The notes under the pieces were generated by a model. That model was not told the DNA's origin and did not search any database. It saw only the letters and a list, made by a program, of their open reading frames with translations. The position numbers were made by a program, and so were the translations under genes. 60,706 bases of DNA from positions 1 through 60,706 of the forward strand of contig BJGX01000004.1 of assembly GCA_014191035.1 (NCBI GenBank). The letters are read 5' to 3'. Of the stretch, positions 18,848 to 45,885 are shown piece after piece. The DNA comes from Candidatus Saccharimonadota bacterium. Its GTDB lineage: Bacteria > Patescibacteriota > Saccharimonadia > CAILAD01 > BJGX01. Positions within the stretch are counted from its first letter, which is position 1; each line of letters begins with the position of its first letter.

Positions 18848-18852
18848 AAAGA

Positions 18853-28506: not shown

Positions 28507-28518
28507 TAAAAAAAGCAA

Positions 28519-30483
28519 CTATTTTTCTATCTTATATGAATAAATTTTATCTCCTGAATTTATTAAAATCTGGGAGTTTTTTGGTTCAATTGTGAATGAG
28601 CTAATTTTTTGATCTGACTCGAGCGCATATTGCCTTATGAAATTGGCAGAATTGGACTCCGTAGTTAGTAGCGCCAGACGGTCCGAGGCTTCATTTAGTA
28701 GAATGAAATAACCCGAATCTTTGTTATAGTAAATATCTTTTATATTTCCAAAACCCGCAGGTAGCCCATTGAGCTGATAAGAACGCTCTGAGCCCTGTTC
28801 GAATAAAAGAATTTTATCTTTTATTGAAATGAAAATATTTCCATTTACAGCAAACGATGTGGCCTGAGAAAGCTCATTTTCAGAGGTGTTTTTGAGTATG
28901 TTTGCTCTTGAAGATAAATTAAGTCCGGATTTAAGATATCTTACTACTTGATTGTCCTGCGCAGCCAATAGGTAGACATTACCCAAGTACGAAGAGATGT
29001 CATTTGATTTAGGTAGCGAATTCGCATTAAGCTTTTGAAGGCCTTTATCTGAAGTGTACTGTAAAATATTTGCCTTACCAAGAACAATTAGACCTGAGTC
29101 TGCAATACTATCCATACTTATTGCCCCTCTAAGGTCTTCAGAACTAGCCCTTATGATAGGCGAGCCTAGTAATGGATTAATTTCAATTATTGATCCATTA
29201 CTGCTGTCCAGGCCGTAAAGAGAGCTATTTAGCCATACAAGGCTTTTTAAGTTGTTTTGAGCAATCTTGAATGAGTTGGATGGTGAAATTCTTGAGGTTA
29301 GATTTAGCTTGTCCTCTAGGGCTATCAGCGAGCTTTGGGTGGAACTAAAGCCGGTTTTGATTCTACCTTTTATTTCGAGCTCATTTAGCTTGTCTCTTTC
29401 TGATGAGCTTATTTTATTTAATATTTGTTCGGCTTTATCTATACTTTCCTTAGCAGAAGCTTGATTGTTTTTTGATAGAGCTGATTTAGCATTATCGATA
29501 AGAGTTTGTGAGTTCTCTAGCTGAGTCAAAGACTTTGGCTTGGCTGTAAGGCTTGATATACCTAAAGAAAGTATACTTATAATTATTATTGTAATTACCA
29601 CAATAATAATAGCTTGTTTAGGGTTGGGATTGATGTATTTTGACCAAAATGAAGTCCACCCAGACTTTGTTTTTGAACTAATTTCTGATGTAATTTTTTT
29701 ATTACTTTTACCTAAAGTCTTAGCTTTTGTTTTAGATTTTGAAGCTGCTTCTTTGATCGATTTTTGAATTTGAGTCATTAGTTTTTTAAATTTTGCATCG
29801 CTTATGGCTTTAGGTTTATCGTTACCTTGGCTAGTTTCTTGCAGCGTATTATTGTCTTCTAATTCAATTAAAAGGGCACTAAAGGCGTGTGTTTTATCTT
29901 TTTGTCGTAAGGATTCGTCTAATTCATCCTCGAAGTTGTCTCGTGAGCTACTTATGGCCATTTTTGATAACTGTTTTTTAGGAATACTTTGGGATATGTA
30001 TTGACTAGCAATTAATATTTTATCTTCGCTATTTAGCTTGCCCTGACCAATCTCTCTAAATATCTTACTTTTGGTATGGGTCGACAAATCTGTAGACGAA
30101 GTGTTTCGTAATAGAAGGAACGTATTGTCTCCAATATCAGAAAAAAGCATTCTGTCATTTGATGTAGCAACAATTGCCATATCAAGTGAGTGCTCGTGCT
30201 TTTTAAGCTGTGCATTTAGGGTCTTTAGGACTTGCTTAAATCTGGATTCGAAGCTGTCTGAAGGAATATCTTCATAAAAAGATTTACCACAAGCCTCAAT
30301 GAGTTTCTCAAAGTCGATTCTTCGGTTGCCGGAATTGTTTTCGAACAGAATATAGAGATTTCCAGTTTCAGAGAGAATGTTTTCTCCTGGTTCAAAACCA
30401 ATTGCAAGGCATTCGTCAGAATTAGATGATTCTGACGAAACATTGATTTGTATATGCTTGGCATTTAACAGGCTATTTTTCAT
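28519..30483 (-). CDS. Hypothetical single-pass membrane protein (cytoplasmic N-domain, coiled coil, extracytoplasmic beta-rich C-domain)
   Basis: Central TM AIIIVVITIIIISILSLGISSL. No family recognised with confidence. Confidence 0.4.
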   Translation of the reverse strand: MKNSLLNAKHIQINVSSESSNSDECLAIGFEPGENILSETGNLYILFENNSGNRRIDFEKLIEACGKSFYEDIPSDSFESRFKQVLKTLNAQLKKHEHSLDMAIVATSNDRMLFSDIGDNTFLLLRNTSSTDLSTHTKSKIFREIGQGKLNSEDKILIASQYISQSIPKKQLSKMAISSSRDNFEDELDESLRQKDKTHAFSALLIELEDNNTLQETSQGNDKPKAISDAKFKKLMTQIQKSIKEAASKSKTKAKTLGKSNKKITSEISSKTKSGWTSFWSKYINPNPKQAIIIVVITIIIISILSLGISSLTAKPKSLTQLENSQTLIDNAKSALSKNNQASAKESIDKAEQILNKISSSERDKLNELEIKGRIKTGFSSTQSSLIALEDKLNLTSRISPSNSFKIAQNNLKSLVWLNSSLYGLDSSNGSIIEINPLLGSPIIRASSEDLRGAISMDSIADSGLIVLGKANILQYTSDKGLQKLNANSLPKSNDISSYLGNVYLLAAQDNQVVRYLKSGLNLSSRANILKNTSENELSQATSFAVNGNIFISIKDKILLFEQGSERSYQLNGLPAGFGNIKDIYYNKDSGYFILLNEASDRLALLTTESNSANFIRQYALESDQKISSFTIEPKNSQILINSGDKIYSYKIEK

Positions 30484-30537
30484 TATCCCTCTTTTGAACT
30501 ATTATAACATCTGATTGCAATGGGGTATTATATTAGT

Positions 30538-33381
30538 ATGAACAAAGCCGACAAAGTAACATTTACAAAGCCGCAGCTTAAGGTTATAAATCATAATGAC
30601 GGGCCAATGTTGGTAGTTGCAGGTGCAGGAACAGGAAAGACGGCGGTAATTACTCAGAGAGTCGCTAGGTTAATTTTGAGTGAAAAGGCAAAACCTGAAG
30701 AGATATTGGCTTTGACTTTTACGGATAAGGCGGCCGCCGAAATGCAGCAAAGGGTCGATGAACTTTTGCCATATGGCTATTTAGATACCCAAATAATGAC
30801 TTTTCACGCTCTAGCCGACAAGATTATGCGCGAGTTTGCGCTTGATGCTGGAGTTAGCCCAGAATTTCAAATTTTAACAGACGTTCAGCAGACAATCATA
30901 CTACAAGAAGTACTGGCAAACACACAATTTGAGTACTTTAGCCCACAAAGAGATCCGTTTGCATTTGTATCTTCAATAAAAAGTGTCATTTCCAGGCTAA
31001 AAGATGAGGGAATCGACGCAGGAGAGTTCAAAAAAAGAGTCGCTAAACTAAATGATACAAAACCGGGGGAAGAGAATGAATCAATGCCTGATTTGGTAGA
31101 AATTTACTTAAAATATTCTGCTATTTGCGAGTCTAAAAACAGCTTAGATTTCGGCGATATGTTGATAAAATTACAGCATTTATTGAAAAAAAGAAATACT
31201 GTTAAAAACGAGCTGCAAAAACGCTATAAATATGTGCTTGTAGATGAATTTCAAGACACAAATTCAATTCAAATGCAGATAATACTTTTACTATTATCAA
31301 AGAAACAAAATATTATGGTAGTTGGTGATGACGACCAAGCAATATACCGTTTTAGGGGCGCATCTGTTCAGAACATACTCTCGTTTAGGTCTCATTTTCC
31401 CAGCAGCGATATTTCTGTTCTTAAGGATAATTTCAGAAGCGGGCAATCAATTCTGGATGCAGGCTATAAGCTAATACAAAATAACAATCCTCAGAGGCTA
31501 GAAGTAAGTGAAAATATAGATAAAAACCTTATTGCCCACCAATTTTCTGATGCGAGCGTCAATATTGATGAGTACGGAAATAAAATTGGCGAATCTGAGG
31601 GAGTTGTTGAAAAAATTTCTGAGCTAGTTGAATCTGAAGTAGACAGCAAAGACATAGCTATTTTATTAAGAAAGAACAATCAGATAAAGCCTTATATTTT
31701 AGAGCTTCAAAAACATAAAATTGCCTACCACGTTCATCAGGATGTTGAGCTTTTTGAGCAAAAGAGTGTGAAAATGATGGTTGCTCTTGCAAAATCGATA
31801 GCAGATCCTGGCGATTCATCATCATTGTTTCAATTGTTAATCAGCGGACTTTTTAAAGATTATAATATTCATCATGTAATTGATTATTCTTCAAAATCTA
31901 AGCGCCTCAATAAAAGCTTATTTGAATATCTAGCACATGATGAGCAAAAAGATGGTTGGATAGAGGCCGCCCTAAAAAGTATTATTAATTGGCGCGAGAT
32001 GATTGCAGATTTTAGTGCTGGTGAGGTTCTTTTTACAGCAGTTAAAGAAAGCGGTTATTTGAAAAGGGCTCTAGATGATTCGGTCACATCAGTAGATAAG
32101 GCTTTAGAGGTTCAATATATGACAGACTTTTTTAAGCTTGTTAAGCAGTTTGAATTGGCATCTTCAAACCCTAGCCTTAATGAGCTTTGCGAGTATTTGG
32201 ATGAAATACGACAGTCATCGGCCGATATTATGAGCGAAATCTCTCCACTTGATATCTCCGGCGTTCAGATTATGACGGTTCATAAAGCTAAAGGTTTGGA
32301 ATTCGATTATATCTTCTTGCCCGAGCTAACTGAACAGACCTTTCCTTCTTATAACAGAGGGGAGCGAATTAGGATACCCGTAGATATAATAAACCCCGGA
32401 GAAGGTGACCAGTTTCAAGAAGAAAGAAGGCTTTTTTATGTAGCACTTACCAGGGCAAAACAGCAGGCTTATTTAAGCTACGCAAAGGATCATGGCTTGA
32501 AGCGAGATAAAAAGATTTCTCGCTTTGTGGTTGAGGCTATAGGAAAAGATTGGTCCGAAAAATCAAATTCTATACCGTCGCAACGAAGTATGTCAGAAGT
32601 ATTAACGAGCTTTGAGCCAGTTGTAAAAAAAGTTGAGAAAGAAAAGATATTATCAAGGCTATTTAAGGGAGAGTGGCTATATTTAACGACCAATCAGATT
32701 GCTGATTATCTAAGATCACCTAAAGAATTTTGGCTGTTTCATGTTCTACATCTACCAAAAGGCCCATTTCATAGCTTGATATATGGTTCAAGCATTCATG
32801 CTGCGCTTGAGCACTACTACAAATATCGTTTGAAAAATAAAGAGACAAATATTGCAGAAATATTAAAAGTCTATGAATCCTCTTGGAGCAGTGAAGGCTT
32901 TGTGTCGGCCGAGCACGAAAAAAATCTTTTCGAAAATGGCAAAAAAGTACTTAGTGACTACATCATAAGACATAGAAAAGACGGTTTTAAGCCGGTTTCT
33001 ATTGAGCAGCCCTTTGAACTTCAGCTTACTGAACTCAAAACAGTGATATCAGGACGTTACGATATCGTACTGGAGTCAGAAGGAGAAATAGAAATAAGAG
33101 ATTTTAAAACTTCTAGAGTGAATGATCAGAAAAAAGCCGACACCAAAGCAAAACAAAGCGTTCAGCTGGGAATATATGCCTTATCTTGGGAGAAACTTCA
33201 AAAAAGTCCAGTAAGCTCCACTAGTCTAGAATTTGTTGAGGACGGTTTTATAGGTAGAAGCGCCAAGGTCGACAATGAAAAGACTCTAGAATTAATAACC
33301 AAGGCAGTAAAGGGCATAAAAAACATGGAATTTGAAGAAAAAGGGGACAATTACGTAGATTTTGACAAACTTTTAGTATGA
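30538..33381 (+). CDS. UvrD/PcrA-type superfamily-1 helicase fused to a C-terminal PD-(D/E)XK (RecB/AddA-like) nuclease
   Basis: AGAGTGKT Walker A, VLVDEFQDTN, and VGDDDQAIYRFRGA. The C-terminal GRYDIV...EIRDFKTSR...QLGIYAL is a nuclease motif set. Start ATG 30538 has TATTAT 6 nt upstream. Confidence 0.8.
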   Translation: MNKADKVTFTKPQLKVINHNDGPMLVVAGAGTGKTAVITQRVARLILSEKAKPEEILALTFTDKAAAEMQQRVDELLPYGYLDTQIMTFHALADKIMREFALDAGVSPEFQILTDVQQTIILQEVLANTQFEYFSPQRDPFAFVSSIKSVISRLKDEGIDAGEFKKRVAKLNDTKPGEENESMPDLVEIYLKYSAICESKNSLDFGDMLIKLQHLLKKRNTVKNELQKRYKYVLVDEFQDTNSIQMQIILLLLSKKQNIMVVGDDDQAIYRFRGASVQNILSFRSHFPSSDISVLKDNFRSGQSILDAGYKLIQNNNPQRLEVSENIDKNLIAHQFSDASVNIDEYGNKIGESEGVVEKISELVESEVDSKDIAILLRKNNQIKPYILELQKHKIAYHVHQDVELFEQKSVKMMVALAKSIADPGDSSSLFQLLISGLFKDYNIHHVIDYSSKSKRLNKSLFEYLAHDEQKDGWIEAALKSIINWREMIADFSAGEVLFTAVKESGYLKRALDDSVTSVDKALEVQYMTDFFKLVKQFELASSNPSLNELCEYLDEIRQSSADIMSEISPLDISGVQIMTVHKAKGLEFDYIFLPELTEQTFPSYNRGERIRIPVDIINPGEGDQFQEERRLFYVALTRAKQQAYLSYAKDHGLKRDKKISRFVVEAIGKDWSEKSNSIPSQRSMSEVLTSFEPVVKKVEKEKILSRLFKGEWLYLTTNQIADYLRSPKEFWLFHVLHLPKGPFHSLIYGSSIHAALEHYYKYRLKNKETNIAEILKVYESSWSSEGFVSAEHEKNLFENGKKVLSDYIIRHRKDGFKPVSIEQPFELQLTELKTVISGRYDIVLESEGEIEIRDFKTSRVNDQKKADTKAKQSVQLGIYALSWEKLQKSPVSSTSLEFVEDGFIGRSAKVDNEKTLELITKAVKGIKNMEFEEKGDNYVDFDKLLV

Positions 33382-33878
33382 AAAAAATAGAATCAAGTTA
33401 TCGAGATCAATTATGGTTAGAGCAAATGCTAGATTATATATGGTCTAATCATTTTTCGGACGTCGAAAAAGTTAATGAAGTTAAAATTAAGTATGGACGA
33501 AAGGCTAAGAGGCGATTAGGGTCAATTGGGCTAGATAGAAATGATCAGACTATTTCAATAATTACCATTAATCCTATTTATCGGGATCCAGAAGTACCAC
33601 AGCATGTAATTGTGGCGACAATCGTTCACGAAATGACGCATTATGCCCACGGATTTAATTCGATGCATGATAGAAAGCAACGACACCCTCATAGGGGTGG
33701 GGTGATAAGAAGGGAATTTGCCGAGAGAGGGCTTGAAAGTATGTATATAGAACAAAAGAAGTGGCTTGATCAAAACTGGATTAGTATATTAGAAAAACAT
33801 TTTGGAGCAGAAAATATCTACAGACCAAGAAAATCAAAGCTCAAAATAAAAATCCCATGGTGGATTTCTGGACTATAA
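33378..33878 (+). CDS. SprT/YgjP-like zinc metallopeptidase-fold protein
   Basis: Carries a HEMTHYAH (HExxH) motif plus downstream HPHRGG. The ATG overlaps the helicase stop (atga). Confidence 0.5.
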   Translation: MKKIESSYRDQLWLEQMLDYIWSNHFSDVEKVNEVKIKYGRKAKRRLGSIGLDRNDQTISIITINPIYRDPEVPQHVIVATIVHEMTHYAHGFNSMHDRKQRHPHRGGVIRREFAERGLESMYIEQKKWLDQNWISILEKHFGAENIYRPRKSKLKIKIPWWISGL

Positions 33879-33902
33879 TTTCAAAAAGAGTAAAATATAA
33901 GC

Positions 33903-34253
33903 ATGAGTAGTATAAATAAAAGTACTAGGAAGGTTAAAAGGCGCTCAAAAACACTTAATCTGTCTTCGGGTAAAACGAAATACAGTAAAAAGCCATCCAG
34001 AGACTCAGTAAAAATTGCTGCAAAAAAGCTAAGTAGAACAAAGACGCGCCAATATGTGTTATTTGCCTTAGGAGCGTTCGTGATAATGCAAATTATTAGT
34101 TATGTTACTACCGATAGCCCTATAGCCGACCTGATCCCGTCGGGAGGGCTTGTATTTTTGTTGGTAATTTATCTTCAATTCGGCCTTATGCTTGCGCTGG
34201 TTGGATTTTTAATGGCCGCATCGGTGACTTATCTACGGTCCCTAAATGACTAG
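33903..34253 (+). CDS. Small basic membrane protein (hypothetical)
   Basis: K/R-rich N-terminus and two TM helices. TAAAAT lies 6 nt upstream of the ATG. Confidence 0.4.
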   Translation: MSSINKSTRKVKRRSKTLNLSSGKTKYSKKPSRDSVKIAAKKLSRTKTRQYVLFALGAFVIMQIISYVTTDSPIADLIPSGGLVFLLVIYLQFGLMLALVGFLMAASVTYLRSLND

Positions 34254-34439
34254 TCATGAATGATGCTTTAGCATTTAAATAATGTAAATATTCAATTTTT
34301 ATATCTGTAAAAACTAATTTTATAGTAATTCAAAAATAGTATTAATAAGAATAAATAAGTTGAACATAGTACAAAATAAATTAATTTTCGTTTTGTGTTC
34401 GCAATATTATGATCTTTGTAGTATTATTGAATTAAACAT

Positions 34440-35510
34440 ATGAACAATATATTGATTATCTTACTATCAGTGATATTTCTGGCCTTAATTGCAGTCATTT
34501 ATTTAATAATGACTAGAAAAAATGAAGCAAGCACTGATTCTTTGTCTTTTTTGAAGCAAGATTTACAAGGTCTGCAGCAGTTAATTAATCAGTCTCAGTC
34601 TCATCTTAATGAAAGAATAGATAAGAATAATGCCGCTATGCAGCAAAGTGTACAAAAGCAAATGAGTGAGTCTTCTAAATTAATTTCGGACGTTACCGAG
34701 AGACTTACAAAGCTCGATGAAACCAACAAAAGGGTAGTTGATGTAGCAGATGAGCTTAAAACCCTACAAAATGTTTTACAGAATCCTAAGCAGAGAGGTG
34801 TTTTGGGCGAATATTACCTTCAAACAGTTCTTGATAATGTTCTTCCTGCTGGTAGATATAAGCTTCAGCACAAATTTAATGATGGCGAGACAGTTGATGC
34901 GGTTATATTTTTAGAAAAAGACAAAATACTACCAATTGACTCCAAATTTAGTCTTGAAAACTATAATCGTCTGGTAGAAGAGAAGAATAAAGAAAGGAAA
35001 GAAGCTTTAACTAAAAAGTTTAAGCAGGATCTCAAGACAAGAATTGACGAAACAAGTAAATACATTAGGCCTTCAGAGAACACAATGGAGTTTGCATTTA
35101 TGTTTATACCTTCAGAGGCAATCTATAATGATTTGCTAACCAATAAGATAGGAGTTACGGACACGGCCTCAAGAGACTTAATAGAATATGCTTTTCAGGA
35201 GAAAAAAGTTATTATTGTTAGCCCGACTACTTTTATGGCCTATTTACAAACAGTTCTTCAGGGATTAAGAAGCTTACAGATAGAGGAGCAAGCTAAAGAG
35301 ATTCAAAAAAGGGTTGGCTTATTGGGTAGACACATTAAGAGTTATGAGCAATTTATGCATAAGCTGGGTAATTCGCTTGGAACAACCGTAAATCACTATA
35401 ATAATGCTCATAAGGAGCTAAAAAAGATTGATAAAGACGTGGTAAAAATAGCCGGAACAGAAGAAGTTGTGGATCCTATGCAATTAGAAAAGCCAAGTAT
35501 CGAAGACTAG
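34440..35510 (+). CDS. rmuC: DNA recombination protein RmuC
   Basis: N-terminal TM helix and coiled coil. QRGVLGEYYLQTVL...LPIDSKF...FMFIPSEAIY is the RmuC core. Confidence 0.85.
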   Translation: MNNILIILLSVIFLALIAVIYLIMTRKNEASTDSLSFLKQDLQGLQQLINQSQSHLNERIDKNNAAMQQSVQKQMSESSKLISDVTERLTKLDETNKRVVDVADELKTLQNVLQNPKQRGVLGEYYLQTVLDNVLPAGRYKLQHKFNDGETVDAVIFLEKDKILPIDSKFSLENYNRLVEEKNKERKEALTKKFKQDLKTRIDETSKYIRPSENTMEFAFMFIPSEAIYNDLLTNKIGVTDTASRDLIEYAFQEKKVIIVSPTTFMAYLQTVLQGLRSLQIEEQAKEIQKRVGLLGRHIKSYEQFMHKLGNSLGTTVNHYNNAHKELKKIDKDVVKIAGTEEVVDPMQLEKPSIED

Positions 35511-35534
35511 CAGTAAGTATTGTATAATACGCTT

Positions 35535-36521
35535 ATGAAAACTGTATTCTCAGGCCTTAAACCTACCGGAGAAATGACCATTGGTAATTATTTGGGTGCA
35601 ATAAAACATTGGCCACTAAGCCAATCTAAAGATAACAGAACTATATTTTTTGTGCCTAATTCGCACGCATTAACTGTTAGGCAAAGTCCTGAGGACATAA
35701 AAACGCGAACATTAGACCTGGTTGCTTGGTTACTAACAGCAGGTATCGAACCATCTAAATCAATAATCTTAGTGCAGTCCATGGTGCCAGCACATGCTGA
35801 GCTATTTTGGATCTTAGATAATTATGTGACCATGGGCGAATTAAGTAGGATGACCCAATTTAAGGATAAATCACAAAAATTAGGTCCAGAAGGGCAGCTA
35901 GTGGGCCTTTTTAACTATCCTGTACTTATGGCAGCCGACATTTTGCTTTATGACTCTAATGAAGTGCCAGTTGGCGAAGATCAAGTTCAGCACGTTGAGC
36001 TCACAAGAGACATAGCAAATAGATTCAACAAGCTATATGGAGAAACTTTTGTTCTTCCTAAAGCCACAATTCCTAATTACGGAGGAAGGGTTATGAGCCT
36101 GGATAACCCCTCTGTAAAAATGAGTAAAAGTGATCATCCAGATAGTTATGTCGCACTTGGAGAGTCGGCTGAGTCTGTAGTTAATAAATTCAAAAGAGCT
36201 GTCACAGACTCAGACACCCAGATTCGCTATAACAAAAGCGAAAAACCTGCTATTTCTAACTTGATGGAAATATATGCAGGATTTTCAGGTATGAGTTTAG
36301 AAGAAATTGAAAATAAATATGAAGGAATAGGCTATGGTGAATTTAAGAATGATCTAGGAGAACTCACTGCAGAGAAATTATCTTCGCTCCAAAAAGATTT
36401 TGAAAAATACAGGTCCAATGAGATTGGTCTTATGAGTATTATTGAAGAGGGTAGCCAAAAAGCCTCAGCAATAGCCAATAAAAAGCTATCAGAAGTAAAG
36501 AATAAAATAGGCTTGTTGTAA
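35535..36521 (+). CDS. trpS: Tryptophan--tRNA ligase
   Basis: SGLKPTGEMTIGNYLGA (HIGH-like), KMSKS, and GEDQVQHVELTRDIA. TATAAT (35523-35528) lies 6 nt upstream of the ATG. Confidence 0.9.
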   Translation: MKTVFSGLKPTGEMTIGNYLGAIKHWPLSQSKDNRTIFFVPNSHALTVRQSPEDIKTRTLDLVAWLLTAGIEPSKSIILVQSMVPAHAELFWILDNYVTMGELSRMTQFKDKSQKLGPEGQLVGLFNYPVLMAADILLYDSNEVPVGEDQVQHVELTRDIANRFNKLYGETFVLPKATIPNYGGRVMSLDNPSVKMSKSDHPDSYVALGESAESVVNKFKRAVTDSDTQIRYNKSEKPAISNLMEIYAGFSGMSLEEIENKYEGIGYGEFKNDLGELTAEKLSSLQKDFEKYRSNEIGLMSIIEEGSQKASAIANKKLSEVKNKIGLL

Positions 36522-36572
36522 AAAATAAACACATTTTTACAGAGTAAAATTAAATTATACGCACAAAAAGTA

Positions 36573-36602
36573 TTGACATAAGCATAAGCGTAATGCTATA
36601 CT
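36573..36602 (+). promoter_or_regulatory. Strong sigma-70-like promoter with no ORF behind it
   Basis: TTGACA (36573-36578), 18-nt spacer, TATACT (36597-36602). Confidence 0.55.
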
Positions 36603-36609
36603 ATAGCTA

Positions 36610-37097
36610 TATTAAGTTCATTAAAAACAAAAACAAAAATCCATGCCACATATTAAGCCTCCATAGGTGCAGCCTGAACTCTAAAAGGTTTGCCACATAA
36701 TTTTAGACGGTAAGGGATTTCTGGATACAAAAAGCAACCCCCTTGTTTTTTGTACCAGAACTTCCTTACTGTCGTAGGGTTTGTCTGAGTGCAGTCATTA
36801 TGCTCAGGGGGAGTTAGACTCCATACCCGATGGAATTTGACCAGGACATAGTCTTCTTTTAAAGAAGGTTGTATCCTGGTCAAGTCCCGAACCGATGGTT
36901 GGGAAGCGACAGCTGCAGTATTTGTTCCATAACATAATTAAAAAGCAGTTGCACCTTCTAGATCTTAGCACCCAGTTAGGATCACCATACCGGGCCGATA
37001 CATGCCAAGTTTGTTTCTAAACATATTAGGGCATTTGAATCGGCCCGTAACCATTTGATTATATTTACGCCACCCATTTGTACAGGGTGGCTTTTTT
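36610..37097 (+). ncRNA. Candidate large structured non-coding RNA (about 485 nt), class unknown
   Basis: Bounded by a consensus promoter and an intrinsic terminator. The longest plus-strand ORF is about 40 codons with no SD. At least four long hairpins contain G:U pairs that form only on the plus strand. Confidence 0.4.
37069..37097 (+). terminator. Intrinsic terminator
   Basis: gccaccc-atttgtaca-gggtggc followed by tttttt. Confidence 0.7.
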
Positions 37098-37467
37098 AGT
37101 AATAATAATACAAATCTTGGGTATCTAACCAATATCAATCCGCAAAGATTGTAATAAATAAGCAATCAGAGCATGTCTGTATTTACATTATTTGAGTTAT
37201 TTTTACCTATATAGTAATTATTACAATGTATTGCTTTTTGCATAACTTATCCACAGTTAAATAAGCTATTTGTTGCCAGGGGTAAAGATTTAGTAGTAAA
37301 TAACTTATTTATTCACAAAATGTGGTTAAAAAAGTAGTTCATTTATTGTGTCAAGAAGTAGCATAAAATAAACTTATTCAATTATAATTTTAATTTGTTC
37401 ATTTTTTGAGCTATCTTTTTGTGCTCTGTACTATATTTGACAGGTGTGTAATAATAATCTTTATCTT

Positions 37468-37845
37468 ATGAAAAATAAAGTCTCAGGTTTAATAGTGATT
37501 ATTTCAATCGTTGCTTTTGTAAGTTTGGCAGTATTTGTGGCTGCTATTTTAATGACAAATCCTACAAAGCTTGGCCCGGGTGGAGTTACCTTTTGGTTTA
37601 TCGATGTACTCCTAATGATTTCTAGTATAACTACTTTGATCTTATATCTGGCTAGAAGAAATAGAGCCGAATCTAAAAAGAGCTTATTATTGTCATCAGC
37701 TAGAACTGGATCTATACTCGCATTCAGTCTGACATTACTGTTGGCCTTATCAAGTCTCAGAAGTTTAAATTGGAGGGATATTATTTTACTACTTCTGCTT
37801 GTCATCCTTGTTGAGGTCTTTTTCAGGACTAGAAGAGAGGCTTAA
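37468..37845 (+). CDS. Small multi-pass membrane protein (hypothetical)
   Basis: Three or four hydrophobic helices. ATG 37468 is preferred over the GTG at 37444. Confidence 0.4.
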   Translation: MKNKVSGLIVIISIVAFVSLAVFVAAILMTNPTKLGPGGVTFWFIDVLLMISSITTLILYLARRNRAESKKSLLLSSARTGSILAFSLTLLLALSSLRSLNWRDIILLLLLVILVEVFFRTRREA

Positions 37846-37847
37846 AG

Positions 37848-38825
37848 ATGGAGAATATTTTAAAAGATTTTAACAATCAATTAAGCAAAGCACAAAACCA
37901 AAATGAGATAGAAAAGGTTAGGGTGCAGTTCTTGGGTAAAAAGAGTTTTATAACGGAAAACATGAAGACTTTGCCAAATCTTTCAGCTGAAAAAAGAGGG
38001 CAGCTTGGTAAGGATTTAAATAGCTTAAAGCTTACTTTCCAAGAAGCAATCAATAAAAAGGTTGATAATTTGGAAATGGCTGCTAAATTTACCCCAATTG
38101 ATGTATCTAGACCTGGAAAACCCCTTTATAAAGAATCAAGAACAGGTCATATGCATCCTTCAAGCTTAGTTTTGAAAGAAACCTATAGGGTATTCACCGA
38201 GTTAGGCTTTGCTATCGTAGATAGTCCAGAAATAGAGGATGATTGGCATAATTTCGAGGCCTTAAATATGCCTGAAATACACCCAGCCAGAGAGATGCAG
38301 GACACATTCTACATCGACAAGAGCAACAAGAAGCTATTGCCAAGAACTCATACCTCAGGAATGCAGGTAAGATTTATGAAGCAAAATAATCCGCCTTTTA
38401 AAATTATCGTACCTGGTAAGGTTTTTAGAAATGAAAACGAAGACGCAACACACTCTTGGACTTTTGGTCAAATTGAAGGCCTAGTGGTCGGTGAGGGGGT
38501 TAGTGTTACAGATTTAAGAGGCACTCTATTGGAAATTGTAAAAAAACAGCTAGGTCCTGAAACGGAAATCAGGTTTAGGGCAAGTTATTTCCCATATACA
38601 GAGCCTTCCATGGAGATAGATGCTAAATTTAAAGGAAAGTGGCTCGAATTGGGAGGTGCCGGCATGGTCCATCCTCAAGTGCTTATAAATGGCGGAATTG
38701 ATCCAGAAAAGTATTCAGGATTTGCATTCGGCTGGGGAGTAGAGAGGCTGGCTGTTATCAAGTACGGGATTACAGATTTAAGAGAGTTGTGGAGACCAAA
38801 ATTTGATTATTTGGAGCAATTTTAG
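37848..38825 (+). CDS. pheS: Phenylalanine--tRNA ligase alpha subunit
   Basis: HPAREMQDTFY, FRNENEDATHSWTFGQIEG and GAGMVHPQVL are class II motifs 1-3. Confidence 0.95.
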   Translation: MENILKDFNNQLSKAQNQNEIEKVRVQFLGKKSFITENMKTLPNLSAEKRGQLGKDLNSLKLTFQEAINKKVDNLEMAAKFTPIDVSRPGKPLYKESRTGHMHPSSLVLKETYRVFTELGFAIVDSPEIEDDWHNFEALNMPEIHPAREMQDTFYIDKSNKKLLPRTHTSGMQVRFMKQNNPPFKIIVPGKVFRNENEDATHSWTFGQIEGLVVGEGVSVTDLRGTLLEIVKKQLGPETEIRFRASYFPYTEPSMEIDAKFKGKWLELGGAGMVHPQVLINGGIDPEKYSGFAFGWGVERLAVIKYGITDLRELWRPKFDYLEQF

Positions 38826-41507
38826 ATGAAAATTAGCGTTGATTTAATAAATTCATATCTGATAAATAAGCTTTCTACCGAAAAGATGGCTGAAGTAATT
38901 GAGCGAACAGAAGTAGAGGTTGAAGAAATTCTGTATGCGAATAAGCTAGATGAAAAAATAATTACGGCTAAAGTAGTTGAAGTTATTAAACATCCAAATG
39001 CAGACAAGCTTAATAAAGCCAAAGTTGATAATGGAATTGCATTGATAGATATTGTATGCGGCGCACCAAATATTCGCGAAGGTTTAGTTGTTGCTCTTGC
39101 TCAAGTCGGATCAGTATTGCCTGATGGCTTTGAGATTAGAGAGGCTAAAATACGAGGTGAAGTTTCTCACGGAATGCTATGTTCAGAAAAAGAGTTAGCT
39201 TGGGGTGAAGATCATGGTGGCATTGTTGAGCTCGACCCTAGCCTACCTATAGGCCAATCATTGTGCGACACAGCAAAAATGAGTGATATCATAGACATTA
39301 AGACACCTTCGAACCGCTGGGACTACTTATCTTATGTCGGGCTAAGTAGGGAAATAGCTGCTTGCGATGATCAGAATTCACTAATTGAACCAGAAACTCA
39401 CGAAATAACATATAAAAACAGGGAAGTCGCAAAAGTCAATAAAAATGAAGGTTGTGAATCTTTTTATACTGTGAAAGCCCGTGTGAAAGCTGATCAAATA
39501 AGCCCTCGTTGGCTTGTGGATAACTTACAGGCATCGGGTGTTCGCACAATAAATCCTGTTGTAGATATTACTAATTTTGTAATGCTCGAATATGGGCAGC
39601 CCTCTCATGCTTACGATATTAATAAACTAAACGGCCCTATCGGTGTTAGGCTGGCTAAAAATAACGAACAGCTCACCACTCTGGATGGTAAGCAGCTTAA
39701 ATTAACTGATTCAGATTTGGTAATTGTGGATAACTCTGGGGCTGTAGCGCTTGCAGGTGTTATGGGAGGCACACGTACACAGACAGACGAAGAAACTACA
39801 GAGGTTCTGATTGAAATAGCTAATTTTGACAAAACAATAGTTCGGCGCTCTGCGCTTAGGCATGGCATTAGAACCGAAGCGTCTGCACGTTTTGAAAAAG
39901 GGCTTCCATCCACTCTCCCCTCTCTGGCTGCCAAAAGAATTATAAAATTACTAATAGAGATCTGTGATGCTGAAATAATAGATGCAAATGAACAATTGTA
40001 CTCCCCTTCCCCTATCCGCAATTTAGGAATGAGACTGAGAAAGGCTGACAAATTTATTGGCTACAGGCTGGATGAAAAAGAGGTGATGACCGCGCTTACG
40101 AAGCGTGGCTTTCAGCCAACCCATTTTTCGCTCACCAAAGAGACAAAAGCTCACATTGGAAAGCCATATATGTATGGGGCGCAAATAGACACTGAAAATC
40201 TTGAAAAGTTTGATTGCTCATTATTAACTAGCTATGTATATTCAAAGGCCGGATTGGATATTGGCAGAACTGCTCAGATGCAATTCGAAAAAGGAATGGA
40301 AGTTCCGGAAGCAGGATTAAAGCCAGGAGATCTTTTATTCCTTAAAGGTGATGAAAAACAAGCAGGCAAAAAAATAGGGCATGTTGGCATGTACCTCGGG
40401 CGCAGTGGCATATTGCAAGCTAGCTCCACTGAAAAAAAAGTTGTTATTAGCCCCGTCACTAAATTTACTAAAGCCAAAAACTATGCTGGAGCCAGAAGGT
40501 ATATAGAGAACTTTAATCATATTATTAGTGTCACTGTTCCGTGGTGGAGAGCAGATGTTGTTGGCGAGGCAGATCTATTAGAAGAGATTGCGAAGACTCA
40601 AGGCTATAATAACATGCCCGAAACATTGCCTGATTTTGGGCCAACACCAACTTTAAATCATCAACTACTACCCTCTTTAATGATCTTAAGGGAAAAGCTA
40701 GTTGCACTAGGCCTAATTGAGGTAATGACATATGCTTTTGTTTCTAAAAAGGACATCGAAAATTTAGGTATAAAAGATTCGGAAATACTAAAAATAGAAA
40801 ATCCACTGAGTTCAGAGCAAGATTATTTAAGGACTAGCTTACTACCAAGTCATTTAAGGGCAGCTTATAACAATCAAAAATCAAACTACAACTCAATGTT
40901 TGAAATAAGTAGAGTATCTAAAAAACAGGCTGATGGAGCTGAAGAAAAATGGGCTTTAGGAATTACGGTTTGGGGGGACGATAGCCTACTTAGACTTAAG
41001 GGCTTGATTGACAGTATCTTTGGTTGGCACAAAATAGATCCTAATATTGAGCGAACTAAAGATAGTTCTTTATATATAGATCAAAGATCGGCAAACATAA
41101 AAAACTATGGAGACTTTGGTCAGCTCAAGCCAGCACTGCTAAAGAGTTTTGGACTAAGAAATGAGCTTTCATTTGCCGAGCTAGATATTGAAAAAATTAT
41201 TAATAGTGATTTTACAATTAAAGCCAAACCGCTACTCCCTTACCAGATAATTTATAAAGATATCACCATTGAGTTACCCATGACCACTTTATATACTGAA
41301 TTAAAAATAAAACTTAATGGAATAACGCATAGCGTTGATTTTGTAGATGAATTTTCTAATGACGAGTTAATAAATAGTTCTAGAAAACGCCTAACTATAA
41401 AGGTAGGTTTTGACTTGGGTCCTAATCCAAAATCCGATGAAATCTCAAAGCATCTGCAAGCCTGCTCCAAAAAACTTGAGACATTAGAAAAAGCTAAAGT
41501 ATTATAG
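38826..41507 (+). CDS. pheT: Phenylalanine--tRNA ligase beta subunit carrying an inserted NlpC/P60-like domain
   Basis: Contains the tRNA-binding OB domain (KHPNADKLNKAKVD), B3/4, B5, the core domain and a C-terminal FDX-ACB domain. About 129 extra residues (aa 437-565) carry GKPYMYG...FDCS...GDLLF...GHVGMY. Confidence 0.9.
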   Translation: MKISVDLINSYLINKLSTEKMAEVIERTEVEVEEILYANKLDEKIITAKVVEVIKHPNADKLNKAKVDNGIALIDIVCGAPNIREGLVVALAQVGSVLPDGFEIREAKIRGEVSHGMLCSEKELAWGEDHGGIVELDPSLPIGQSLCDTAKMSDIIDIKTPSNRWDYLSYVGLSREIAACDDQNSLIEPETHEITYKNREVAKVNKNEGCESFYTVKARVKADQISPRWLVDNLQASGVRTINPVVDITNFVMLEYGQPSHAYDINKLNGPIGVRLAKNNEQLTTLDGKQLKLTDSDLVIVDNSGAVALAGVMGGTRTQTDEETTEVLIEIANFDKTIVRRSALRHGIRTEASARFEKGLPSTLPSLAAKRIIKLLIEICDAEIIDANEQLYSPSPIRNLGMRLRKADKFIGYRLDEKEVMTALTKRGFQPTHFSLTKETKAHIGKPYMYGAQIDTENLEKFDCSLLTSYVYSKAGLDIGRTAQMQFEKGMEVPEAGLKPGDLLFLKGDEKQAGKKIGHVGMYLGRSGILQASSTEKKVVISPVTKFTKAKNYAGARRYIENFNHIISVTVPWWRADVVGEADLLEEIAKTQGYNNMPETLPDFGPTPTLNHQLLPSLMILREKLVALGLIEVMTYAFVSKKDIENLGIKDSEILKIENPLSSEQDYLRTSLLPSHLRAAYNNQKSNYNSMFEISRVSKKQADGAEEKWALGITVWGDDSLLRLKGLIDSIFGWHKIDPNIERTKDSSLYIDQRSANIKNYGDFGQLKPALLKSFGLRNELSFAELDIEKIINSDFTIKAKPLLPYQIIYKDITIELPMTTLYTELKIKLNGITHSVDFVDEFSNDELINSSRKRLTIKVGFDLGPNPKSDEISKHLQACSKKLETLEKAKVL

Positions 41508-41543
41508 AAAAATACCTAATTTTTAATTTATAATGGAAAGTGC

Positions 41544-43013
41544 ATGGGAAAAAAACCACATTCTCATTTCTTAAGCCTACCCCCTAAATTATCGAAAACT
41601 GGACAAAAACCTTCAGTTAAAAATAGGGTGTGGTTTATATTTATAGGAATTTTTTTAGTATTTATAATTTCCAATTTAATAATAGGAGCATTAACCCAAG
41701 GAGTTATTTTTCCAGGCGTTTCTGTTGCAGGCAAAGATTTAAGCTTTAAGACTCAAAATGAAGCTAGACAAATACTTTCCAGCATTAATAATGACAAAAA
41801 ATTTAAGGTAAAAGTTGGTAATAAAACCTTCGATGCTACGACTAAGGATTTTGGAGTTAGTTATGATTTAGAGAAGACGCTTCAGCAGGCATATAGTATT
41901 GGGCATTCCGGGCCACTGCCCATTTTAGGATTTTTTGAAGTTAACCGACGCGGACAGCTAGGCTATTCTTACAATGTAGATTCAAACCAGCTTAAAAGCT
42001 TTACTTCTAAAGTAGTCTCGGCAGTGGGTAAAGATCCGGCAAATGCGACGCTTAAGGTTAATAATGGTAATTTAGAGGTTGTTCCAGATCAAGACGGTTT
42101 TAGAGTTGATCAGAAGCTTCTAACTTCAATTATTCAGAGCGCAATCGCGGATGACAAAGATACGAATGTCGTACTGGAGCCTCAACCTGTTAAGGCCTCT
42201 TTTTTGGTTAGCGATATAAGTGCAGCGCAAAAGAAAGCCAGCGAATTGTTGTCCCGATCAGTTATCTTGAATTATGAGGGTAGGCAGTTTATACCCGATA
42301 AGAATGCAATGGGATACTGGCTCGCATTTAAGCATGTTCAAAAAGAGGACGGAAAAGTAGAATTGCAAGTAGATTTGTCCAGAGATCAAATTAAAGGCTA
42401 TTTACAGTCAGTAGCAAATGAAGTTGATATTGCCCCAAAAAACAAAAAGGTAAATATCCGTAACGGCACCTCTACTGTTGAGCAAGAAGGTGTAAATGGC
42501 AGGGCTATTTTACAAGATCAAGCTGTAGATCAAATATTTTCTGGCCTAGTAAACGGAAGTGTATCTGTTAATCTGACTTCAACACCCCTGGCTTTTAAAA
42601 CGGAAACAAACCGTTCGGTAGGACTGGACTATAATAAATATATTGAAATTAATCTATCCTCACAAAGACTATGGGCCTATCAAGACAATTCAGTGGTATT
42701 TTCCACACCTATCACAAGTGGTGCAACTGGCGCCGGATTCCCGACTGTAACGGGGCTATTTAACATTTACGCCAAAGAGAGAAGTAGATATTTAAACGGC
42801 CGACCTTATGGGTGGGATTATAATGTTTACGTTGACTACTGGATGCCTTTCTATGGAGGATACGGCCTACATGACGCCGATTGGCGCAGTGCTTTTGGCG
42901 GCCAAGATTATTACTATGGTGGTAGCCATGGATGCGTAAATATGCCCAAAAGCTCGGCAGCATTTATATATAGTTGGGCCAATATCGGCACCCCAGTATG
43001 GGTACATTACTAG
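41544..43013 (+). CDS. L,D-transpeptidase (YkuD domain) with an N-terminal membrane anchor
   Basis: The C-terminal LHDADWRS...GGSHGCVNM is the catalytic His/Cys motif. Confidence 0.85.
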   Translation: MGKKPHSHFLSLPPKLSKTGQKPSVKNRVWFIFIGIFLVFIISNLIIGALTQGVIFPGVSVAGKDLSFKTQNEARQILSSINNDKKFKVKVGNKTFDATTKDFGVSYDLEKTLQQAYSIGHSGPLPILGFFEVNRRGQLGYSYNVDSNQLKSFTSKVVSAVGKDPANATLKVNNGNLEVVPDQDGFRVDQKLLTSIIQSAIADDKDTNVVLEPQPVKASFLVSDISAAQKKASELLSRSVILNYEGRQFIPDKNAMGYWLAFKHVQKEDGKVELQVDLSRDQIKGYLQSVANEVDIAPKNKKVNIRNGTSTVEQEGVNGRAILQDQAVDQIFSGLVNGSVSVNLTSTPLAFKTETNRSVGLDYNKYIEINLSSQRLWAYQDNSVVFSTPITSGATGAGFPTVTGLFNIYAKERSRYLNGRPYGWDYNVYVDYWMPFYGGYGLHDADWRSAFGGQDYYYGGSHGCVNMPKSSAAFIYSWANIGTPVWVHY

Positions 43014-43050
43014 TCTAGTTTAGAATAAGCATAGCTGTTATAATTTAATT

Positions 43051-43449
43051 ATGAAGCCAGACGCAAACAATCCTGGTTCTTTTATGCCCGCACAAAATGC
43101 GGAATCTCTTAATGCTATAAAAAAATCCCCAGATGCTATTGGAAATTCTTCTTTATCAGCATCGCAAAACAAGTTTCCTGGCGCCCCTTCTCAAATTAAA
43201 GAAAATATAAATCATGGCGAATCATCAAAGCCTGATACCCAAGCCCCCAAAAGTGAAGTTGATAATTCATTCGAAGCGCAATTATCGCAAATGCCCGCCG
43301 AAGACACGGATATTATTGAGAAGGAATGGGTAGATAAGGTTGATCATGTTATTGAAACAACTTCCAATGATCCATATTTTCAGGAGCAAGGACAGCATGC
43401 ACTTGCAAGGCATTATTTAAAATCTAGATTTAATCAGGATGTTAAGTAA
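43051..43449 (+). CDS. Hypothetical protein (disordered N-half, helical C-half)
   Basis: TGTTATAAT extended -10 lies 6 nt upstream of the ATG. The stop is 3 nt before the next ATG. No family recognised. Confidence 0.35.
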   Translation: MKPDANNPGSFMPAQNAESLNAIKKSPDAIGNSSLSASQNKFPGAPSQIKENINHGESSKPDTQAPKSEVDNSFEAQLSQMPAEDTDIIEKEWVDKVDHVIETTSNDPYFQEQGQHALARHYLKSRFNQDVK

Positions 43450-43452
43450 TTT

Positions 43453-45885
43453 ATGAATAGCTTTGTGACGTTGGCGGTAATTGCTCTTTTAATTTTTTTA
43501 GCTATTATCTCGGTTATTGCAGTGTTGGTTTATTTAAGAATAACAAGACACTCTAAAGATATAGAGAGAAGCTTAAAAATGGTTCCGCTGCTCTTGAAAA
43601 TTCCTCCCCAAGAAACTGAGGAGGGTAACCGAGACGAAAGGGAGCTAGTAAAAGAGAATATATCTAAGGCTGAAGGTGTATATAGACTGTTGTCTGGTAT
43701 TGCTACTAAGTCCTCTATTGTTCATAGCCAAAGACATGTTAGTTTTGAAACAATAGCAAAGGGTAAGCAAATATTTTTCTATGCAGCAGTGCCAATTAGT
43801 TTGTTGGCTGCAGTAAAGAAGGCCCTAACCTCTGCTTACCCAGGCATTCAAATAGAGCAACAAAATGATGTCAACTTCTTTTCTAAGGAATCCAAAATTA
43901 ACGGAGTTGCTGGAGGGGAGTTTGTTCTAAAAAGAACCAGCTTTTACCCTATTAACTCATACCAATTGAGCGAGCAAGATGCGTTTGCGGCACTGCTTTC
44001 TGGTATTTCTGGGCTTAGCGAAAATGATGGAGTAGGAATACAAATAATGGTTAGGCCGGCAGCCTCTAAGTGGCTTAAGTCGGCAAGGCAACAATCGAAG
44101 CAGCTTTTAAATCCAAACAAAAAATATGGTGCCGAAAAAGTTGTTGGTTCTGTAGGAGATATTGCCAAAGCTCCGTTTAGAAGTGCCAAGGATGAAAAAT
44201 CGGCAGAAATTAAACAGCCAGACACCATAGATCAAGAAAATAGCAAACTTATAGAGGAGAAATCTAAATATCCTGTTTTTGAGACACTTATAAGAGTTGT
44301 AGCAAGCTCGGATACCCAGGCCAATGCCAATTTAATTATAGACAGTGTTAAATTAGGCTTTGCTCAGTTGGCACTTAATAATTCAAATGAATTTAAATAT
44401 GAACAAAGTAAGGATACACAGAAGCTTGCTACGGATTTTATTTTTAGATTCTTTCCTAAATCCAAAAATAAAACAGTACTAAATTCAGTTGAGCTTGCAA
44501 CGGTGTTTCACTTACCAAGCGAAAATATTGGTATTGCTGCCACGGTAGAGAGAAAGGGTATGCAAGAAATTGCTGCACCTGCGGATATTAACACCGAGGG
44601 AATGATTCTGGGTACAAATATATATCAGGGCCATGAACAAATCATAAGATTAGGCGACGAAGATAGACGCAGACATTTTTATATAATTGGACAGACTGGA
44701 ACAGGTAAGTCTTTATTCTTACGCAATTGTATAGTTCAAGATATGTACGCTGGTAAGGGTGTGGCTTTTATTGACCCTCACGGCGATACCGCCGAAGAGC
44801 TAATGGCTATGGTTCCACCAGAACGTGCCAAGGATGTTGTATATTTCAATCCCGGAGATTCGGAATTTCCGATGGGTTGGAATATTATGGAATTCGATCC
44901 GGAACACCCAGAACAAAAAGACTTTTTGGTTCAAGAAGCTATATCAATGCTTTATAAAATATATGACCCAAACAAGCAGGGTTTCATGGGTCCTCGATTT
45001 GAAGCCTGGTTTAGAAATGCCGCCTTAACAGTTATGGCTGATCCAGAGGGTGGAACATTTATTGAAATACCTAAAGTCTTTACTGATGATGAGTATTTAA
45101 AAATGAAATTTAAGCACCTGACTGATCCGGTTATTCAAGATTTTTGGACTGGCGAAATGGCCCAAACTGATGCCCATTCTAAATCTGAGATGCTAGGCTG
45201 GTTTGTATCTAAATTTGGTGCTTTTTCAAATAACGAAATAATGCGCAATATTGTTGGGCAGAAAAAATCCGCCTTTAATCTAAGAGAAATGATGGATGAA
45301 GGTAAAATTCTATTTGTAAATCTATCTAAGGGATTGCTTGGCGATATTAACTCTCAGCTATTGGGGATAATGTTTATAATAAAATTTCAGGTAGCTGCCA
45401 TGAGTCGTGCAGGAATGGATAAAAAAGATAGGCGCGACTTTAGTGTTTATATTGATGAGTTTCAGAATTATTCAACAGACTCTATTGCTACAATTTTGTC
45501 TGAAGCAAGAAAGTATGGTCTTAGCCTAATAATGGCTAACCAGTTTATTTCTCAGCTAGATGAAAGTGTTAGAGATTCGGTTTTTGGTAATGTTGGATCA
45601 ATGATAAGTTTTAGAGTTGGCCCAGACGATGCCGAGTATTTAGTAAAGCAGTTTGCCCCAGCCTTCGATGCTGGTGATTTGACCAATATACCTAATCATT
45701 ATTGTGCTGCCAAGGTAATGAATAAGGGCTTTCCTTCAACCCCCTTTTCTATGAAAGAAATAATGCCTCCATTAGGTAAAGAAAAGCCAGAATTAATGCA
45801 GGCCATGATTGATTTAAGTCGCGCAAACTTTGCAAAACCGAAAGCGCAAGTGGATGCAGAAATTGCAAAAAACTTAGGCATATAA
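43453..45885 (+). CDS. Membrane-anchored P-loop ATPase of the FtsK/HerA/TraG-VirD4 (T4SS coupling-protein-like) superfamily
   Basis: N-terminal TM helix, Walker A GQTGTGKS, Walker B VYIDEFQNY, and ARKYGLSLIMANQFISQL. The subfamily cannot be fixed by eye. Confidence 0.6.
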   Translation: MNSFVTLAVIALLIFLAIISVIAVLVYLRITRHSKDIERSLKMVPLLLKIPPQETEEGNRDERELVKENISKAEGVYRLLSGIATKSSIVHSQRHVSFETIAKGKQIFFYAAVPISLLAAVKKALTSAYPGIQIEQQNDVNFFSKESKINGVAGGEFVLKRTSFYPINSYQLSEQDAFAALLSGISGLSENDGVGIQIMVRPAASKWLKSARQQSKQLLNPNKKYGAEKVVGSVGDIAKAPFRSAKDEKSAEIKQPDTIDQENSKLIEEKSKYPVFETLIRVVASSDTQANANLIIDSVKLGFAQLALNNSNEFKYEQSKDTQKLATDFIFRFFPKSKNKTVLNSVELATVFHLPSENIGIAATVERKGMQEIAAPADINTEGMILGTNIYQGHEQIIRLGDEDRRRHFYIIGQTGTGKSLFLRNCIVQDMYAGKGVAFIDPHGDTAEELMAMVPPERAKDVVYFNPGDSEFPMGWNIMEFDPEHPEQKDFLVQEAISMLYKIYDPNKQGFMGPRFEAWFRNAALTVMADPEGGTFIEIPKVFTDDEYLKMKFKHLTDPVIQDFWTGEMAQTDAHSKSEMLGWFVSKFGAFSNNEIMRNIVGQKKSAFNLREMMDEGKILFVNLSKGLLGDINSQLLGIMFIIKFQVAAMSRAGMDKKDRRDFSVYIDEFQNYSTDSIATILSEARKYGLSLIMANQFISQLDESVRDSVFGNVGSMISFRVGPDDAEYLVKQFAPAFDAGDLTNIPNHYCAAKVMNKGFPSTPFSMKEIMPPLGKEKPELMQAMIDLSRANFAKPKAQVDAEIAKNLGI

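Follow-up and report, generated by a model that had tools for sequence, protein, structure and literature searches.

The window analysed here, a 60,706-nucleotide (nt) stretch of low-GC (guanine-cytosine) DNA from a Candidatus Saccharimonadota bacterium (contig BJGX01000004.1), contains, between trpS (35520/35535–36521) and ORF125, a small membrane-protein gene adjoining pheS-pheT, a unit of ~490 nt that very probably (we put the probability at about 0.8) represents a genuine new family of large structured non-coding RNA (ncRNA) in one clade of Saccharibacteria. About nine helices of this RNA, namely P0, P1, the S2:S3 junction with P2 and P4, P5, P6 and P7, are shown to be kept by compensatory substitutions, and contigs from RNA libraries attest to the presence of the RNA and to an abundance above that of the adjacent mRNAs. 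The original prediction of a promoter-to-terminator unit with no credible open reading frame (ORF) is borne out by a promoter that matches the consensus at 11/12 positions, a terminator, a length of ~490 nt and the lack of a conserved ORF, while its proposal of a novel large plus-strand ncRNA is supported by the null result in Rfam, by covariation and by the RNA-library contigs.

A protein search with the tryptophanyl-tRNA synthetase (TrpRS) returns a graded series of Candidatus Saccharibacteria, from 99% to ~60% identity, and the contigs of these relatives share the order RmuC - trpS - gap - ORF125 - pheS - pheT. The first ~585 nt of the trpS-ORF125 gap align to the window at 82–94%, and DNA conservation ends at the terminator. 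The element is recovered by nhmmer in all Saccharibacteria loci for which DNA was obtained (TrpRS 61–92% identical), the most distant relative with the RNA being L172 (TrpRS 61%), and a DNA-pattern scan of metagenomes adds 10 true homologues. Two further hits, L098 and L106, were set aside as chance matches in GC-rich DNA, none of the 58 matches of the DNA-pattern scan in viral contigs is related, and a genome scan seeded with TrpRS (universal peptide patterns) reaches distant bacteria only, with the RNA absent among the matches listed. The identical sequence is found again in metagenomes of lake, river, freshwater sediment and wastewater and, as far as sampled, the family is restricted to one environmental Candidatus Saccharibacteria clade of freshwater, sediment and wastewater. 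In closer relatives the nucleotide identity of the RNA exceeds that of trpS and pheS (95 versus 83/85%, 87 versus 73/70% and 83 versus 71/69%), and in distant relatives it is comparable to theirs. The block is also intact where its neighbours differ, with guaA downstream in L089 and a methyltransferase gene upstream in L091, and ORF125 travels with pheS rather than with the RNA.

Covariation was assessed in 17 sequences (alignment A2) using RNAalifold and pair counting. The consensus comprises 79 pairs in 10 helices, and 94.1% of the cells are paired, compared with 32–52% in slid controls where the partners were shifted by 1–3 columns. Changes on both sides are seen for 38/79 pairs against 19.4 ± 2.9 in shuffles, none of the 500 shuffles reaching 38, such that the homologue alignment that had been suggested as a check upholds the structure. 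MAFFT placed the P0 and full P5 helices out of register and RNAalifold predicted none there, and per-sequence folds were used for these regions. Overall, the consensus is a string of independent domains without a helix closing the 5′ and 3′ ends, and has conserved loops and linkers, of which CCCCCUUG and UGAWCUCU are invariant and GUAACCA is present in 14/17 sequences.

The plus strand of the unit folds to −170.6 kcal/mol (z = −9.4 versus shuffles), whereas the minus strand reaches z = −5.3. The U·G/G·U pairs 274:455 and 275:454 are invariant in 17/17 sequences and therefore fit the plus strand only, in line with the earlier claim that the wobble pairs form on that strand alone. The assignment to the plus strand is supported by these G·U pairs together with the z scores and the orientation of promoter and terminator.

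In two metatranscriptomes (X28 and X30), the sole contigs over positions 27001–47000 lie at 36906–37068, with none from the flanking genes, and over 3900–19200 contigs fall on RNase P RNA and transfer-messenger RNA (tmRNA) only; across the 35 kb covered, RNase P RNA, tmRNA and the new RNA are the sole sources of contigs. Their depths in X28 are ~300 for tmRNA, ~32 for RNase P RNA and 3.6 for the new RNA, and in X30 they are 5 for tmRNA and 2 for the new RNA. A further RNA library (X29) holds an adapter-flanked cDNA spanning 36714–36844 at a depth of 7.1, with two other contigs in 20 kb at a depth of 2, and X25 contains 36708–36897.

Helices and boundaries of the unit

The unit can be divided into the following features.

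36573–36602, plus strand: sigma-70-type promoter with −35 TTGACA, an 18-nt spacer and TG-extended −10 TATACT; 11/12 consensus match
36609–36642, plus strand: 5′ leader, A-rich and unstructured (AAGUUCAUUAAAAACAAAAAC...), conserved and unpaired in the folds
36643–36666, plus strand: mini-ORF, AUG CCA CAU AUU AAG CCU CCA UAG, encoding MPHIKPP-stop and ending where P0 begins
36666–36694, plus strand: P0 hairpin, variable stem and conserved loop UGAWCUCUNAAA (per-sequence folds)
36706–36720, plus strand: S1 (GACGGUAAGGGAUUU), 5′ strand of the lower half of hairpin 1, pairing with S2 (state A)
36721–36758, plus strand: P1 upper hairpin with invariant apex CCCCCUUG; 16 pairs, 96% paired, 5 compensatory
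36759–36775, plus strand: S2 (AACUUCCUUACUGUCGU), shared strand pairing with S1 or S3
36777–36828, plus strand: P2 domain, GGG(U) 36777–80 with (A)CCC 36825–28; 98% paired, 1 compensatory pair
36832–36888, plus strand: P4 long hairpin of ~20–25 bp, sequence varying and structure kept; 4–5 compensatory pairs
36892–36906, plus strand: S3 (CCGAUGGUUGGGAAG), pairing with S2 (state B) and closing a three-way junction around P2 and P4
36910–36951, plus strand: P5, CAGCUGC 36910–16 with GCAGUUG 36945–51; 4/5 pairs compensatory
36962–36982, plus strand: P6 hairpin with a C-rich loop (ACCCA); 8 pairs, 5 compensatory, 92% paired
36991–37047, plus strand: P7 composite hairpin; 17 pairs, 10 compensatory, 96–100% paired
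37048–37056, plus strand: S4 conserved linker (UAACCAUUU), complementing AUGGUU of S3; UAACCA in 14/17 sequences
37069–37097, plus strand: intrinsic terminator, GCCACCC, 9-nt loop, GGGUGGC and U6; 7-bp GC-rich stem

Most of the homologues folded (13–14) have the P0 hairpin at this position, with stems that are unrelated in sequence, as exemplified by GGAUAUCU/AGAUAUCC, GAUACUU/AAGUAUC and UGUUACCGG/CCGUGGUGGCA. The loop of P1 at 36738–36742 is invariant in 17/17 sequences, and P2 encloses variable hairpins, which in the window span 36784–36808 and 36810–36822 (per-sequence folds). A long hairpin occupies the place of P4 in 13/13 homologues. Likewise, P5 is present in 13/13 homologues by per-sequence folds, with an inner small hairpin in the closer relatives and stems elsewhere that include CAAUCGC/GCGAUUG, AUCGAAC/GUUCGAU and CAGCCG/CGGCUG. 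P7 rests on a 9-bp base (CGGGCCGAU/AUCGGCCCG) and continues through an inner stem (AUGCC/GGCAU) to a mini-hairpin at its apex.

Three of the four hairpins proposed originally, namely the first (36706–36773, with the CCCCC loop), the second and the fourth (36991–37047), are present and covary, and correspond to P1, P4 and P7. The lower half of the first of these competes with the better-supported S2:S3 helix. By contrast, the third hairpin (36886–36903) is 72% paired and has no compensatory change, and the long-range helix between 36665–73 and 36948–56 is 58–66% paired and clashes with the covarying P0 and P5; its perfect match in the window relies on AGG at 36665–67, a triplet that is AAG in most relatives. 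A pseudoknot joining the CCCCC loop to GGGGG (36807–11) was also rejected, the G-run being missing in distant homologues.

The RNA unit has a GC content of 0.44–0.46, compared with 0.23–0.30 in the flanking spacers. At its 5′ end, the −35 element and much of the spacer, which contains the repeat CATAAGCATAAGC, and of the −10 element are invariant among the 17 homologues, the promoter being nearly invariant overall. Transcription is inferred to start near 36609, and the leader that follows contains the invariant alignment columns G57, C60, T62–A67 and A70–A73. At the 3′ end, the terminator was overlooked by the terminator scanner only owing to its loop of more than 8 nt. It forms helix 10 of the consensus, with 4/6 pairs compensatory, and a hairpin and U-tract are found at this place in every homologue. 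The sequences differ, those of L089, L109 and L112 being unrelated. An environmental RNA variant, seen in a contig of run X31 (37011–37056), has the conserved linker AACCAUUU followed by another terminator sequence (ACACCCAAAAAGGGTGTTTTTTT), so that the body of the RNA is kept while its terminator can be exchanged. Further downstream, the ~350-nt AT-rich spacer is unconserved except for a single island at 37391–37442, which holds TTGAGC-17-TACTAT (37406–37434) just 5′ of the ORF125-pheS-pheT cluster and is probably the operon's own promoter.

The location of the unit invites a reading as a cis-acting leader or attenuator that would sense uncharged tRNA, the status of proline or elongation factor P (EF-P) via the mini-ORF, or a metabolite, and would set the read-through of the terminator into ORF125-pheS-pheT (guaA in L089). 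Indeed, the RNA always lies upstream of the pheST cluster, the succession of a leader ORF, S1:S2 and S3:S4 versus S2:S3, and then a terminator is attenuator-like, and guaA of L089 begins a few bases past the terminator; UGGU in S3 and ACCA in S4 moreover recall the contact between a T-box and the tRNA acceptor end, which we treat as a lead only. However, the terminator is a separate hairpin of unrelated sequence in distant homologues, with no conserved anti-terminator overlapping it, the unconserved ~350-nt spacer and the promoter-like island intervene before ORF125, and the downstream gene varies between lineages. In addition, the T-box model is unmatched even at E ≤ 10, three lineages lack the mini-ORF yet retain S1–S3, and the RNA is found in RNA libraries without contigs on the downstream genes. 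We regard this reading, the main rival, as improbable: the RNA is probably not the leader of the next gene.

Coding potential and other features of the window

The longest plus-strand ORF within the unit has 41 amino acids (aa) (36895–37020), one more than the limit of 40 codons given originally. No ORF of at least 30 aa is common to the homologues, whose indels are mostly of 1–2 nt, and in the six closest relatives the 129 columns that vary distribute as 46/42/41 across the three phases, without codon periodicity. An ORF from the AUG within S3 (MVGK...) shifts frame between close relatives, and reading UGA as sense (genetic code 25) yields no conserved long ORF. As predicted, there is no conserved coding ORF, apart from the 7-codon 5′ mini-ORF in part of the family.

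The pattern M-P-H/Y...P-P-stop of the mini-ORF is retained in 8/13 lineages, where its length varies by whole codons only (24, 27 or 30 nt) and its changes, judged by eye, are mostly synonymous or conservative (CCU/CCA, CCA/CCG, AAG/AAA, AUU/AUA, CAU/CAC and UAG/UAA). A different 12-aa peptide, MPQILYAFYDDT, takes its place in the L110 group, L172 has a 23-aa MPH... ORF there, and no AUG is present at this position in L091, L112 and L109. An anti-Shine-Dalgarno mimic (CCUCC, 36658–62) was considered and rejected: relatives carry CCACC or CCACCG, so that Pro-Pro is kept and the motif is lost.

The unit could alternatively be the mRNA of a small peptide, or a dual-function RNA, whose product is MPHIKPP or the act of its translation, with stalling at Pro-Pro-stop, the rest being a structured 3′ untranslated region (UTR) or stabiliser. 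This would account for the conservation at the peptide level, the length differences in whole codons and the stop retained in eight lineages. A C-terminal Pro-Pro slows termination in E. coli, and a missing Shine-Dalgarno motif is not disqualifying, as only 9/29 of the larger ORFs of the window (~30%) have one and its absence at the mini-ORF is therefore not decisive. Against this stand the replacement of the peptide by unrelated ORFs (L110 group, L172) or its absence (L091, L112, L109) while the ~430 nt downstream keep covarying helices, and the variable sites of the mini-ORF in the six closest relatives, of which 4/8 are third positions, so that codon-position bias is not significant. It also leaves the invariant loops and junctions unexplained, and we give it little credence. 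Within the structured ncRNA that we favour, the mini-ORF is treated as an accessory rather than as a gene product, because it is not universal in the family. Its Pro-Pro-stop could be a ribosome-pausing element; a ribosome paused there would keep P0 open.

Several gene starts of the window (e.g. 26849, 43051 and 59341) have a TATAAT-like box 5–10 nt before the ATG, which, together with the 9/29 ORFs with a Shine-Dalgarno motif, suggests frequent leaderless or very short-leader mRNAs.

Elsewhere in the window, the Rfam scan identifies 16S rRNA, RNase P RNA, tmRNA and tRNAs. The 16S rRNA is followed by tRNA-Ile and tRNA-Ala (55788–58048) and then by protein-coding ORFs instead of 23S rRNA, and the rRNA genes therefore appear unlinked. 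The last 18 nt of the tRNA-Ala (GTCCCCGATGCTCCACCA, 58031–58048) are repeated 163 nt downstream at 58194–58212, each copy being followed by its own terminator hairpin; this arrangement resembles a scar, or a duplicated attachment site, left by an element that integrated or was excised. At the left edge, four tandem 81-nt (27-codon) repeats that are 60–95% identical lie at 36–359, apparently within a coding region, and the minus strand carries at 19849–24921 a very large, internally repetitive ORF (1690 aa; repeat families D4, D9 and D10), which may encode a surface protein.

Alternative pairings of S2 and proposed function

The strand S2 has two partners, and the pairings S1:S2 and S2:S3 share at least 6 nt of S2. 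The S1:S2 helix (36706–20 with 36759–73) comprises 15 pairs with ~90% of cells paired, and displays compensatory changes at 208:277, 215:270 and 221:264 (A2 columns), the last with four pair types. The S2:S3 helix (36761–75 with 36892–906) comprises 13 pairs, 98% paired, with compensatory changes at 265:464, 266:463, 277:452 and 278:451, the last occurring as GC, CG and AU. Individual lineages point in either direction: a change of S2 in L109 is compensated in S3 and not in S1, whereas a change of S2 in L089 improves the S1 pair and breaks the S3 pair. Constrained folding places the S1:S2 state 9–13 kcal/mol below the S2:S3 state in 12/13 homologues, and 26 kcal/mol below it in L089. When S1 holds S2, the AUGGUU of S3 could pair with AACCAU of the linker (37049–54), a potential pairing that is invariant in 14 sequences, and L091 and L112, compared by hand, appear to carry another S4, complementary to a different stretch of S3.

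A two-state core of the RNA is probable, while for the switch itself, in which S2 would alternate between S1 and S3, we see somewhat less than an even chance. In such a scheme, state A would be the S1:S2 long hairpin, the thermodynamic and first-transcribed state, and state B the S2:S3 three-way junction, which is the better conserved of the two pairings; the equilibrium would be moved by a partner or by ribosomes on the 5′ mini-ORF. More speculatively, the RNA may be a Saccharibacteria-specific two-state device in which translation of the Pro-Pro-stop mini-ORF or a protein partner flips S2 from S1:S2 to S2:S3 and so frees S1, the S4 linker or the invariant C-rich loops to act on other molecules, or an 'ornate' RNA forming higher-order particles in the manner of OLE, ROOL and GOLLD; we consider this rather unlikely, but if true it would be the first lineage-specific functional ncRNA in the candidate phyla radiation (CPR), with a mechanism outside the current classes.

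We infer a stable, trans-acting RNA, which would most likely be a component of a ribonucleoprotein (RNP) or a regulator binding via its conserved C-rich loops. Genomes of Saccharibacteria and CPR bacteria are ~1 Mb or less, the near-complete related contig having 651 kb, and that of TM7x is ~94% coding. A non-coding gene of ~0.5 kb with stricter conservation than its aminoacyl-tRNA synthetase neighbours in such compact genomes therefore probably serves a need of these epibionts.

Several observations weigh against the interpretation as a free-standing structured RNA with a two-state core. The 17 sequences represent ~8–10 lineages, and the two-state idea derives from few independent substitutions. 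State B is ~10 kcal/mol less stable in every homologue and therefore needs a helper, and the same data can alternatively be read as a static arrangement in which a short P1 and S2:S3 coexist. The mini-ORF suggests translation of the 5′ end in at least some members. The family is seen at one syntenic site only, upstream of ORF125-pheST, and a cis role is therefore possible; likewise, there is no terminator between trpS and the promoter of the RNA, so that part of it could also arise as trpS 3′ UTR. As for the discrete transcript that had been proposed as a check, library contigs lie inside the unit and not on its neighbours, but they are assembled contigs that carry neither strand information nor quantification and leave the transcript ends unmapped. 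Finally, no function, partner or target emerged.

Relation to known RNAs

At the gathering score, Rfam 15 matches no family to the RNA anywhere in the window, and at E ≤ 10 there is no family match for 36400–37500 or for the RNA locus of five divergent homologues (L089, L091, L107, L109 and L110), an outcome in favour of the original proposal, which had named an Rfam search as a check. Permissive Rfam runs give spurious microRNA-type matches only, caused by the long hairpins, and ARAGORN finds nothing in 36400–37300. A literature search turned up no earlier account of an RNA of this kind in Saccharibacteria or Patescibacteria, the TM7x transcriptome paper reports no validated small RNAs in TM7x, and matches to the loop complement CAAGGGGG, sought in the window as possible targets, were fewer than chance would give.

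Individual classes were rejected as follows. No covariance model of OLE, ROOL, GOLLD, HEARO or raiA matches in the window or the five divergent homologues. For a T-box riboswitch, RF00230 is unmatched at E ≤ 10, the terminators are unrelated between homologues and there is no conserved competing strand, and for a classical attenuator the terminator stands apart and is not conserved, and a promoter-like island of its own precedes the next operon. The ~180–200-nt rod with a central bubble of 6S RNA contrasts with the new RNA, which lacks a 5′–3′ closing helix and has no Rfam match. Neither Rfam nor ARAGORN matches a signal recognition particle (SRP) RNA, tmRNA or tRNA-like RNA at the unit. The conserved toxin ORF (20–60 aa) of a hok-like type I toxin mRNA is missing, frames being broken by 1–2-nt indels. 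Finally, a mobile element or miniature inverted-repeat transposable element (MITE) would be expected in multiple copies, with terminal repeats and at variable locations; the 60.7-kb window has a single copy, and one was detected per related locus, always at the syntenic site.

A known class (6S, SRP, T-box, hok-like or OLE/ROOL/GOLLD/raiA) that has diverged beyond recognition by its model would be conceivable in that CPR RNAs are often divergent and the long-range alternative pairings recall the hok-family mRNAs. However, six divergent sequences have no Rfam match at permissive thresholds, while Rfam scores this genome's RNase P RNA at 206 bits and its tmRNA at 125, and neither a closing 5′–3′ helix or central bubble nor a toxin-sized conserved ORF is present. 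We attach hardly any weight to this explanation. Rather, the new RNA belongs among the orphan large structured bacterial ncRNAs, with a sequence and structure unrelated to those of the current members. New classes of this kind are rare, and OLE, ROOL and GOLLD have led to membrane RNPs and RNA-only cages. The family is a covariation-supported target for structure probing, cryo-electron microscopy and genetics in cultivable Saccharibacteria, if a carrier grows, and could enter Rfam and the annotation pipelines for CPR genomes.

The new RNA resembles the orphan large RNAs OLE, ROOL, GOLLD and raiA in having several hundred nt, many covarying helices and invariant loops, in its own promoter and terminator, in its restriction to a lineage, and in being found in RNA libraries with no obvious function; the small membrane-protein gene downstream loosely recalls ole-oapA. 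It differs in its CPR/Saccharibacteria host, the others being found in Bacillota or phages, in having no similarity to their Rfam models and no strictly linked partner-protein gene, and in its 5′ mini-ORF and mutually exclusive helices. With attenuators (the trp, his and pheST leaders, and the mgtL type with proline codons) it shares a short leader ORF, here ending in Pro-Pro-stop, pairing as 1:2 and 3:4 or as 2:3, an intrinsic terminator and a position upstream of pheST. In contrast to these, the 3:4 pairing is not the terminator, the RNA has ~490 nt with a further six helices, part of the family lacks the leader ORF, and a promoter of its own appears to serve the operon downstream. The hok-family mRNAs, whose programmed alternative folding is backed by coupled covariations, are likewise transcripts of ~400–500 nt in which one strand has two conserved exclusive partners, one forming a local hairpin that is made first and the other a long-range helix, whereas the new RNA lacks both a conserved toxin ORF and a gene for an antisense RNA, and is single-copy and syntenic in the chromosome.

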